Of a stretch of DNA of 9,291 nucleotides, positions 3,001-6,000 are shown piece after piece. Position 1 is the first letter of the stretch, and each line of letters opens with the position of its first letter. Position numbers: made by a program. The stretch comes from Candidatus Micrarchaeaceae archaeon (lineage in GTDB: Archaea; Micrarchaeota; Micrarchaeia; Micrarchaeales; Micrarchaeaceae), in assembly GCA_050013715.1 (NCBI GenBank), contig JBEKES010000037.1, forward strand, positions 1-9,291. Direction: 5' to 3'.

Positions 3001-6000
3001 AACATAAGCTCTATAATGCTCGCATTGCCCGCAATATGCTTCTTCACTTCACTGTAAACCAATTGATAAGCGTTTTTAGCGTCCATTTATAAACCTTCAT
3101 AACCATAATATATTCAATGCAATTAACTTAATATATAAGAGTTAAATATTTAACAGTTGCATAATATATAGCGGGGAAACTGTGATATACATGGAAATAA
3201 AGGACACTAAAACTGTATCAATAGAAGAGGTAATAAAGGTACTGGAAGAAGGCAAGGAATCTGAACTAACCTATGAGCAGCAGCTTGCTTTGCAGCACGC
3301 AAAGAAGTTCTCTGTCTCGATGGCAAAGAGCGAGAAATTGAAGAAGGCTCTCGAGGCGCTTGACCTGCTCAGCGAGAAGAGCATTATAAAGATACTTGAG
3401 GTAAATCCTAAGAACGCAATGACCCTAAGGCAGATACTTGCAAATGAGAGAAAGACCTATACTGATGAGGAAGTAAACAAGATACTTTCAATAGCAAAGG
3501 AGAAGGGCTAGTGTTTTAATGCAATTAATGCAAAATTGGTTGGGAAAATGGAAACAGAAGAGAGAAGAGAGGAATACGCATATGTTCTTGACTTTATGGT
3601 CAGCGGCAAGTCTTTCTCAAACAGGTCAGAGCCGCTTACTCAATTGATAGGAGAGGAAAAGTTCACCATTCTTGAAGCTACAATAAAGCCCAACGCTGTG
3701 CTAAAGCTGGACGAGCGCGTCTATATTGGAAAAGACGAAAGAGACAAGATTCTGCTTATAAAGGCAAGGATAGGATACGATGAATTAACCCAAACCGCAA
3801 AGAATGAGCTTCATAACGTGGTAATGACAATAGTTAAGTCAAACGAGAAAAGGTTCGTTGACATATTCAACAATGCCGGTTCCTTGAACATAAGGCAGCA
3901 TGCGCTTGAATTGCTGCCAGGAATAGGAAAGAAGCATTTGGAAGCGATATTGAAGGCAAGGAACGAGAAAAAGTTCGAAAGCTTCCAGGACATACTGGAT
4001 AGGGTGCAATTGCTCCAAGATCCGGCAAAGCTTATTACTGACAGAATAGTTGCAGAACTAACCGGAGATGAACGATTCTACATGTTTACAAAACCTTACA
4101 GGAAAAGAGAATTTGGCGACAACAATAATTACAGAAGGTAAAATATTATTTTTCATAAAAGTGAATATATTTATATCTCCTAGGATAGAATCTGATAAGT
4201 GATAAAGTTGCAAAAAGATAGTAACGCTATAATAGAGCGTACCGCCAGAAAAATTGAAAGGCACGAACAAAGAGCAGATACATTTAGTACTCTTTTAAGA
4301 GATTCACGATTGGCTGCATATGTGGCTGCTACCTCTTATAATAAGGCTGCAGAGTTATCGAATTCCATTAAAGATAAAGATCAGGAAAGAAGACTACTAT
4401 TAAGAGCTGCAAATAGTTTTGAAGATCTGGGCGCAATGTCGCAACAGGAGGCAGAAAAAACTTCTGGAAGAAAAAGAGCAAAACGCTATCTATCTGCATA
4501 CAAATCCTTCATAGAAGCAGCATATGCAATACATCAATTAAATCAACCGAATTTCAATAATAGGGAAAGAAACCTGATGGTTAGAGCCGAAAGGATATTG
4601 GAAATTATACCTGATGTTTCAATTGACTTTAGTGGCCTTTTTATGATGCCTGGTATTTCGAGATGGGAGTTAGAAGACAAGGTTTTACTTATTAAAAAGG
4701 AACTTAATTTAGATAATGATGTATTGAAAAGCATAAAACCTGATGCCAATCTTTCAGAAGAGGTATTACCCAAAATAAAAAGATCAGAGTTCGGAACTTT
4801 TACCAATTTGGCTTTATATTTACAAAGAATAAAGCTTGATGATTTTAAAGATAGAATAAGTCCTGATGATGATTTGGAATCGATATTGGGAGTACTTGCC
4901 TATGGTATATACGATAAGATTTTATGTACTTTAAAGGATTCGAAACTCGAGAAAATTGGAAAATGTTTATCTGTATCTGTTGAGGACTGGTGCTCCGAAC
5001 TTACTATAGACAATGATGATGGAATTCAGGAATGGGAATTGAGCCATCAAATTGTAAATACACCAATCATGGAAATCGCTTTTTATAGAATTCCAAGAGA
5101 AAATTTGGAAACTGCAATTCAAATTGTTGATAAAGTTGCAACTGAATTAAGAAAAGAACACGAAATTAATTCGATTGATCCTACTGAAACCGAATTTATA
5201 CTTTGTTAAGGTGCAATACAGGAACAGTAAGCCTTTTTGTTGCGCTCATTATCTTCAATTCAACAACATAGGCTGAGCCTCTTCTTGCGATTACCTTGCC
5301 CACCTTGCCCTTGTATCTTGGATGAGGAATGTTCTTTACGCTGCCCTTGGGCACAATTGCAACGGTATCTCCAACTTTAAAGGTCTTTATATGCTCGCTA
5401 ACGCTAAGTGAAGAAGGCTTGTGGTGCCTTGCGAGATGCCTTGTCTTTCCTGTGAATAAACCCTGTGATCTTTTGGTCATTTAATCAACTTACAAATAAT
5501 ATTACAATATCAATATCTATAACTATTTAAAGGTGTACGTCTAAGTATTATCATATAATATAAAGTGAATTCATATGGCAAAACATAATACTCAAATATA
5601 TCCTCCACACAAGAGGGTAATACTAAAACCAACCTACAAAGTTCAGAACATAGTAACAAAAGCTGAACTTAATGTGGACCTTGATTTATACGGATTGGCA
5701 AAGCTTTCCCATGATGTTGACTACGAGCCTGAGCAATTCCCAGGCGCGATATTCAAGGTTCATGATCCAAAGGCAGCGCTTCTTCTTTTCAAGAACGGAA
5801 AGATAATATGCACTGGTGCAAAGACAACTGCAGATGTAAAAAGGGCAATAGACAAGGCAGTTGAATTGGTAAACAAGTACCTAGCAAGCAAGAAAGGCAG
5901 AAGGCAAGGTTAATTCTGTTCTATTTTCCTAATCCAGTTAATTGATTCCCTAGCCAATGCTTTCTCATGGCCGTCAAATCCGTGGTTCGCGCCTTTGATT

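Follow-up and report, generated by a model that had tools for sequence, protein, structure and literature searches.

Two unlinked one-lobe TATA-binding protein genes in Micrarchaeaceae and the two-chain promoter factor that they are predicted to form

Introduction

Canonical archaeal TATA-binding protein (TBP) consists of two tandem PF00352 lobes in about 180 aa, whereas the locus described here encodes only one lobe per chain. It lies in a window of 9,291 nucleotides (the whole stretch of DNA that was analysed), contig C37 of the genome of a Candidatus Micrarchaeaceae archaeon (G000 in the following), and its gene, tbpA or gene A, has a one-lobe counterpart, gene B, on another contig. This raises the question of how a basal promoter factor could be built from such half-size chains, how widely they occur and how they arose.

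The tbpA locus

The features of the locus are as follows (+, forward strand; -, reverse strand).

5575..5913, +: tbpA (gene A), one-lobe TBP with an ATG start, 112 aa, with short basic tails at the N- and C-terminus
5635..5880, +: the sole PF00352 lobe of A, residues 21-102, model positions 2-85 of 85, 92 bits
5638..5658, +: strand S1 of A, residues 22-28 including Asn25 and Val27, placed by alignment to solved TBPs and by conservation
5722..5745, +: acidic stirrup YEPEQFPG of A, with Glu51, Glu53 and Phe55
5785..5802, +: LFKNGK motif of A, containing Phe72, the second Phe for DNA kinking
5526..5531, no strand assigned: TTTAAA palindrome, the best candidate TATA-like site on both strands
5564..5568, +: Shine-Dalgarno-like AGTGA upstream of the tbpA ATG, recognized by sequence
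5196..5480, -: rpl21e (PF01157), divergent from tbpA, synteny marker of the phylum's tbp locus
5910-6884, -: alpha/beta hydrolase, the next ORF after tbpA, tail to tail with it

The stop-to-stop frame of A measures 114 aa and the next ORF, that of the hydrolase, is on the opposite strand, so that a second lobe cannot follow A. The protein aligns with either lobe of archaeal TBPs of known structure, with 2Z8U as the best hit (E 1.2e-38), and its structure model has a pLDDT of 81.

The TTTAAA palindrome, 49 nt from the ATG of tbpA and 51 nt from that of rpl21e, is probably a promoter shared by the two divergent genes, and GTGA, as contained in the AGTGA before tbpA, is enriched genome-wide at -13 to -8. 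Across 46 family loci the rpl21e-tbpA gap has a median length of 91 nt and typically holds one AT-rich site at its centre; one central site, an arrangement viewed here with no control set, would be in keeping with a factor that has stirrups on both sides. TATA-like promoters are present in this genome. Divergent genes in it show only a broad spacing peak, at 80-160 nt, and a TATA box shared between divergent genes genome-wide is not claimed on the basis of a peak of that kind.

Further upstream, rpoF and the DUF655 gene (3182-4141 and relatives) are oriented toward rpl21e. The orientation of DUF655 relative to tbp is the same in 40 loci and opposite in 37; the 40 match in number the loci from Micrarchaeaceae and the sister family, a pattern that suggests an inversion specific to the order. 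A 336-aa ORF between DUF655 and rpl21e (4199-5209, +) has no Pfam match, and ORFs without a match are also found at 1109-1522 (-) and 1644-2171 (+).

Gene B and the TBP content of the genome

Gene B lies on the minus strand of contig C11 (C11:17927-18298), with its PF00352 match at C11:17981-18226. A six-frame search of the 92.9% complete genome with PF00352 gave two matches, A on C37 and B on C11, and a second six-frame search, unfiltered and based on a broad lobe profile, in which stops were read as X, gave A and B only (104.9 and 100.5 bits), the next score being 3.4 bits. Both searches agree with the initial annotation, which had described a genome without a two-lobe TBP and with two one-lobe genes on different contigs; the open frames of 114 and 144 aa, the lobe match of A to model positions 2-85 and the presence of both YEPEQFPGAI and LFKNGK in A and in B were likewise reproduced. 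Of 90 aligned positions, the two proteins share the same residue at 46. The structure model of B has a pLDDT of 62, and a Foldseek search gave 44 matches at E <= 0.001, with PDB chains of TBP at the top of the list and throughout it. In the single-chain models, which were made from 23-row alignments only, S1 is partly formed in A and has a pLDDT below 50 in B, too thin a basis for a firm conclusion on dependence on a partner chain.

The 144-aa frame of B has no ATG, GTG or TTG before strand S1. Its first standard start, the TTG at C11:18193, corresponds to Leu36 of the 123-aa protein that begins at an ACG at C11:18298, 5 nt after GGTG, and is located downstream of S1; the earlier statement that a TTG start cuts S1 off and that the frame opens at an ACG is thereby borne out.

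One TFB gene was detected, split across two contig ends (the start of C72 and the end of C60). The protein has a long basic N-terminal extension ahead of its zinc ribbon.

Distribution in the family, the sister family and the phylum

Among the 120 other Micrarchaeaceae genomes, PF00352 matches number two in 101, one in 11, none in three, three in four and four in one, at least two thus being present in 106/120; the two-match pattern, previously reported as a trait of the lineage, is repeated on this larger sample. A strong match to both A and B was obtained in 103 of these 106 genomes, and of the other three, G027 has, by sequence, a divergent A and a B, and G004 and G063 have a B that is interrupted by a contig end. 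When A and B were used as queries on the 11 one-match genomes, five proved to have A only and six B only, a split as expected from random assembly gaps, which fits retention of both genes. Both cores were read in 72 family genomes, G000 included, and each of them has A and B. In the six single-contig genomes (G009, G027, G033, G051, G076 and G086) the two genes are separated by 115-763 kb, with a third match absent, in agreement with the lack of linkage noted before in closed genomes.

In the sister family a single match was found in 15/25 genomes, the same figure as given earlier. A B-type match is present in 32 of 71 genomes of that family and absent from the searched genomes of its genera g30, g34, g36, g37, g39, g40 and g94, two single-contig genomes among them. 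In a sample of 151 genomes from the phylum, the proteins read comprise 24 with one lobe, spread over ten further families, and 19 fused ones, spread over eight. The family and phylum tallies include the unpublished G038 and the sister-family B tally the unpublished G245, the sequences of neither being used.

The incompleteness of G000 is in keeping with an explanation in which the assembly has missed a canonical TBP to which A and B are monopartite accessories, and sequences of canonical type do occur in two family genomes, G010 and G106, and in G136 of the sister family. However, a fused TBP frame is found in only one of the 120 family genomes among the matches listed (150 of 231), namely G010, where it sits on an 8.4-kb contig and not beside rpl21e; this protein and the G106 fragment belong to the ordinary PG-L type, and the lobes of G010 fall outside the clade of the phylum. 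As there is no such gene in the six single-contig genomes and A is at the tbp locus itself, the explanation is close to refuted.

Several further observations concern individual genomes and records. Family f6 has two or three one-lobe genes per genome in G191 (L113, L157, L158), G203 (L098, L159) and G222, which by their sequences are an independent expansion, of another kind than A and B. G066 carries a third frame that resembles TBP, divergent and 123 aa long (L231, 41 bits), and G015 has no TBP match at 92% completeness, probably owing to assembly gaps. One-lobe TBPs of the same clade come from records labelled Iainarchaeum (L292), Nanobdellati archaeon (L283) and archaeon (L286). A B-type gene labelled "Methanothrix" (L266), a fused TBP of the same clade labelled "Methanobacteriota" (L294) and an archaeal TBP labelled "Bacteroidaceae" (L306) are probably cases of labelling or binning errors.

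Conservation and selection

Asn25, Val27, Glu51, Glu53, Phe55, Pro56 and Phe72 are invariant across 55 A and 35 B lobes, as is the YEPEQFPG stirrup (55/55 in family A, 35/35 in family B). The set of two Phe, Asn and Val of S1 and Thr of S5, which we take to be the DNA contacts of a TBP lobe, is invariant or nearly so in the same lobes, and the DNA-facing residues of A and B hardly differ from each other. In the larger set of cores read, B of genus g16 (L175, L179 and L200; three genomes) carries Cys for the S1 Asn. The two Glu of the C-lobe stirrup bind TFB, according to the available part of PMC7221094, and this Glu pair (Glu51, Glu53) is present in every A and B lobe. Comparisons within genera (96 pairs per gene, uncorrected and with pS near saturation) give a pN/pS of 0.10 for A and 0.09 for B, and by this measure both genes are under strong purifying selection.

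These data bear directly on the proposal that an A homodimer (A2) does the work and that B is a regulator or decoy, which would pair with A or titrate TFB without productive promoter opening. The weak start codon of B, its long stem branch (0.38-0.44), the Asn-to-Cys exchange in genus g16 and the existence of accessory one-lobe proteins, such as the TbpA described as non-essential in the accessible text of PMC3597702, would agree with such a role, but the DNA-contact and stirrup residues are invariant in 35 B lobes and purifying selection on B equals that on A, which makes it improbable.

Strand S1 is presumably, judging from the known TBP saddle, the edge that needs a second chain to pair with, and its K-x-E pair is assumed to sit at the dyad. 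B has fixed S1 residues of its own, Ile for Tyr/Phe and Val for Ala. The K-x-E pair, a pattern noticed post hoc, occurs in 44/46 one-lobe proteins outside the family, in 1/55 family A and 5/35 family B proteins, in 0/4 sister-family B proteins and in 8/38 fused lobes. The S1 of sister-family A is alike with B in the genome (7 proteins) and without it (15 proteins). A mirror-tree correlation of A with B (r = 0.53) was set aside as a sign of their interaction, since shared descent explains it.

The ACG start of gene B

An in-frame ACG 5-6 nt after a Shine-Dalgarno motif is present in 55 of 77 B loci (a set that includes eight with an unusual S1), from 22 of 29 genera; the others have ATG at that spot (7), GTG (1), ATG without the motif (7) or no call (7). 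The ACG start that had been proposed for B is thereby supported, and it is family-wide, beyond the congeners for which it was first noted; in the congeners themselves (genus g3), the equivalent site of B is ACG or ATG. By comparison, an ACG start was found in 4/77 A loci, all of genus g18. The spacing between GGTG and ATG in G000 peaks at 5-6 nt (69/115 occurrences), and the ACG of B stands at 5. In the control, the Met1 position of trm56 (23 aligned loci, with five unaligned and one omitted), the codon is ATG in 13 loci, TTG in five, ACG in three, GTG in one and ATA in one. Taken together, the trm56 control and the B loci indicate that ACG serves as a start codon in Micrarchaeaceae and that B is unusual in retaining it.

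A sequencing error or a mere Thr codon was rejected as the source of the ACG, given that ACG makes up 48 of the 63 in-frame codons of B at that spacing, with no other Thr codon among them, while it accounts for 94/460 Thr codons within the lobes. Loss of aIF1 as its cause was also rejected, a SUI1 match being present. An ACG start is weaker than ATG, and B would accordingly be translated more weakly.

In genus g18 (L045, L084, L214, L219) the ACG start is found on A and B alike, which would rebalance the subunits. The B of G066 (L052, at about 2418) has GCG where its relatives have ACG, with no alternative start before S1. Other likely non-standard starts after GGTG in G000 are an ACG of trm56 (C1:73877, +), an ACG at C11:4837 (-) and a CTG at C23:3050 (-), the latter two in genes that we take to encode a tRNA-binding-like and an RpoL-like protein, respectively.

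Origin of the one-lobe genes

A divergent rpl21e is found at 43/55 family A loci, 16/22 sister-family A loci, 18/23 other one-lobe loci and 19/19 fused genes, and at 0/39 B loci, whereas a glycosyltransferase adjoins B at 27/35 family and 4/4 sister-family loci, many of the flanks in these counts being short. A occupies the tbp locus of the phylum.

Three trees of 82 columns were made, each from part of the lobes read (156, 62 and 73 rows, the 156-row one being a quick tree), and AU tests were carried out under LG+G4, the AU values being modest on this 82-column basis. All Micrarchaeota lobes, together with those labelled Diapherotrites/Iainarchaeota, fall into a single clade that excludes ordinary N and C lobes (98; 95/95; 100/99), within which A and B group as a clade of their own (95; 100/98; 99/97). 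A split TBP, with one gene placed among ordinary N lobes and the other among ordinary C lobes, is rejected in both arrangements (p-AU 0.043 with A on the N side and 0.014 for the reverse), and so is a tree that forces the phylum's fused N lobes together with ordinary N lobes (p-AU 0.024). From the A-B clade and the rejection of the split trees it follows, as far as these sequences go, that A and B are sister paralogues, duplicates of an already one-lobe gene, and not an N and C pair; of the earlier reading, the two unlinked one-lobe genes are retained. N and C profiles score A and B of Micrarchaeaceae within about 2 bits on average, and forcing the one-lobe clade to an N- or a C-lobe origin gives p-AU values of 0.35 and 0.47. 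The YEPEQFPG stirrup resembles that of a C lobe, occurring in 88/126 canonical C lobes vs 15/126 N lobes.

The fused TBPs of other Micrarchaeota families, taken as normal TBPs in the initial annotation, turn out to be of a different kind. Their two lobes are 49-79% identical to each other, the corresponding values for ordinary TBPs being 42-45% (two proteins, same measure) and 34-53% (named ones), and both carry the PG-A-I and F-K-N-G signature of the lineage and are placed within the one-lobe clade, so that these proteins would have been re-duplicated or homogenised. Their N and C lobes group by family and not as one N and one C clade, with supported branches that force at least two changes. 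Outside the phylum, an Iainarchaeota-labelled record has a one-lobe gene of the same clade, and ordinary TBPs with two lobes occur under the labels Woesearchaeota, Pacearchaeota, Nanoarchaeota and Nanohaloarchaea.

In our reading, one lobe was probably lost and duplication then occurred repeatedly. A different history, in which a two-lobed TBP was kept, its repeats were homogenised by gene conversion and the one-lobe genes arose through several later lobe losses, would give the same single lobe clade, but it has to accommodate fused lobes that group by family and force those changes. In its extreme form, the one-lobe state would be primitive and predate the duplication. The trees do not separate an N from a C source (the two p-AU values above), and a branch point near the duplication is compatible with these data taken alone. 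The alternative history as a whole is, however, opposed by the ordinary TBPs of the four groups of labelled records just named and by the C-lobe-like stirrup, and a primitive state would need an archaeal root beside the Micrarchaeota lineage, which to our knowledge is not favoured. We regard this alternative history as less likely than not.

Proposed mechanism

Each lobe brings two of the four Phe and half of the sheet, from which, by reference to the known saddle, two chains would have to pair, and sole one-lobe genes would accordingly act as homodimers. That one-lobe TBP chains form dimers is very probable, and the earlier proposal of a promoter factor made of a dimer of half-size chains is in this sense supported, as an inference.

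In the model that we propose, the two-lobed TBP of an early ancestor was replaced by a single lobe with a TFB-binding stirrup, which would have acted as a symmetric homodimer; duplication of this gene in the ancestor of the order would have left A beside rpl21e and taken B to another place, and the Micrarchaeaceae would keep both because an A-B heterodimer is the selected form, with A2 possibly alongside it. The saddle would be formed by two chains joined at S1, the two Phe of each kinking the TATA box, and TFB would dock on either lobe, so that direction would be set by TFB and the BRE. B would probably be the limiting subunit owing to its ACG start.

In the family, A and B are retained and constrained to the same degree, and the S1 K-x-E pair has largely disappeared from both, as would fit abandonment of strict two-fold symmetry; these points favour the heterodimer. 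It has to be noted that A orthologues are alone in much of the sister family (B in 32/71 genomes) and can presumably work alone, given the genera without B and the unchanged S1 of A there, that the K-x-E loss does not demand a heterodimer, since sister-family B also lacks the pair, and that a weak start on B only is at odds with balanced 1:1 synthesis. No natural A-B fusion was found among 190 database matches (for proteins of 170-196 aa, with the B query only), and the Asn-to-Cys exchange in S1 of B in genus g16 also speaks against the heterodimer. On balance, we give an even chance to the A-B heterodimer being the form kept by selection in Micrarchaeaceae.

The same facts can be turned to a model of separate homodimers, in which A2 would serve as the housekeeping TBP and B2 as a scarce alternative TBP for some promoters, comparable to the multiple TBPs of haloarchaea. 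The position of A at the ancestral locus (rpl21e divergent in 43/55 A vs 0/39 B loci), its occurrence without B in about half of the genomes of the sister family, the fixed Ile and Val in S1 of B, which could be self-complementary, and an ACG start suited to a minor factor all speak for it. However, B is kept in the family as fully as A and is equally constrained, family A lacks the S1 pattern of sole one-lobe TBPs, the near-identical DNA-facing residues leave scant scope for distinct TATA specificities, and one TFB gene was detected. Two separate homodimers are thus a possibility that we consider rather doubtful.

A more far-reaching version of the heterodimer model is put forward tentatively, as somewhat less than an even prospect: after a return to a symmetric one-lobe TBP, the family may have re-evolved TBP asymmetry in trans, with an A-B heterodimer that is essential and whose amount is governed by the conserved ACG of B, and other families in cis, by tandem re-duplication. 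If this is true, the origin of the two-lobed TBP was replayed several times in one phylum, with the homodimer, heterodimer and fused stages all extant.

Implications

For archaea and eukaryotes alike, TBP is described as one chain that carries two lobes, and its one-lobe relatives had been known as accessories only. A and B are, on the evidence of sequence, a real, lineage-wide TBP variant that is predicted to work like TBP and lacks its two-lobe architecture; a whole family seemingly transcribes with half-size TBP chains. The long-assumed dimeric ancestor thereby becomes testable on natural proteins, as a homodimer in the sister family, as two paralogues in Micrarchaeaceae and in re-fused form in other families, and the presence of TFB-binding residues on every lobe offers a test of how far the BRE alone sets direction. 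The lobes of TBP have probably been duplicated more than once. For annotation, genes of this kind miss the curated TBP cut-offs (NCBIfam PRK00394, >=181 bits vs 86-88 bits for A and B, a fused Micrarchaeota protein being missed as well), several are labelled 'hypothetical', and gene calling with ATG, GTG and TTG only truncates B.

Comparison with known systems

With canonical archaeal TBP (M. jannaschii 2Z8U, S. acidocaldarius 1MP9, P. woesei 1AIS/1PCZ; PRK00394), A and B share the lobe sequence and fold, the Phe pair, the S1 Asn and Val and the acidic stirrup, the last being a C-lobe signature there and present on both chains here. Archaeal TBP is generally monomeric, as stated in the part of PMC5501381 available to us.

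No one-lobe archaeal proteins in the absence of a canonical TBP were found in the literature, including the accessible portions of PMC3597702, PMC7289017, PMC8407392, PMC8211752 and PMC13257274, and no paper on the one-lobe TBP of Micrarchaeota or its ACG start in the literature searched, which mostly left out subscription journals. The lineage names had no match in four supplements of PMC7221094, and a survey of DPANN, in the part available, gives TBP as conserved with no comment on its size.

A and B can also be compared with Halobacterium TbpA and the monopartite proteins of Thermococcales (Brindefalk et al. 2013, PMC3597702), in which, according to the accessible text, the whole gene is likewise a single TBP domain of <150 aa. 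In that account these proteins coexist with canonical TBP, TbpA is not essential and those of Thermococcales are only distant relatives of TBP, whereas A and B occur with no canonical TBP detected, are close to true TBP, and A is at the tbp locus. The multiple TBPs of Halobacterium and Methanosarcina, as far as covered by the available part of PMC5501381, also involve more than one tbp gene and possibly a partition of promoters, but are complete and two-lobed, while the half-genes described here permit three dimers (A2, AB and B2).

A pre-duplication TBP has been hypothesised as an ancestral single lobe obliged to dimerise (PMC3597702, PMC4910066 and PMC7221094, in the parts consulted). The repeat-distance clock, as set out in the available text of PMC4910066, would be limited by the fused Micrarchaeota TBPs, which violate its criterion of a single duplication. 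In contrast to that hypothetical ancestor, the one-lobe state of A and B looks derived.
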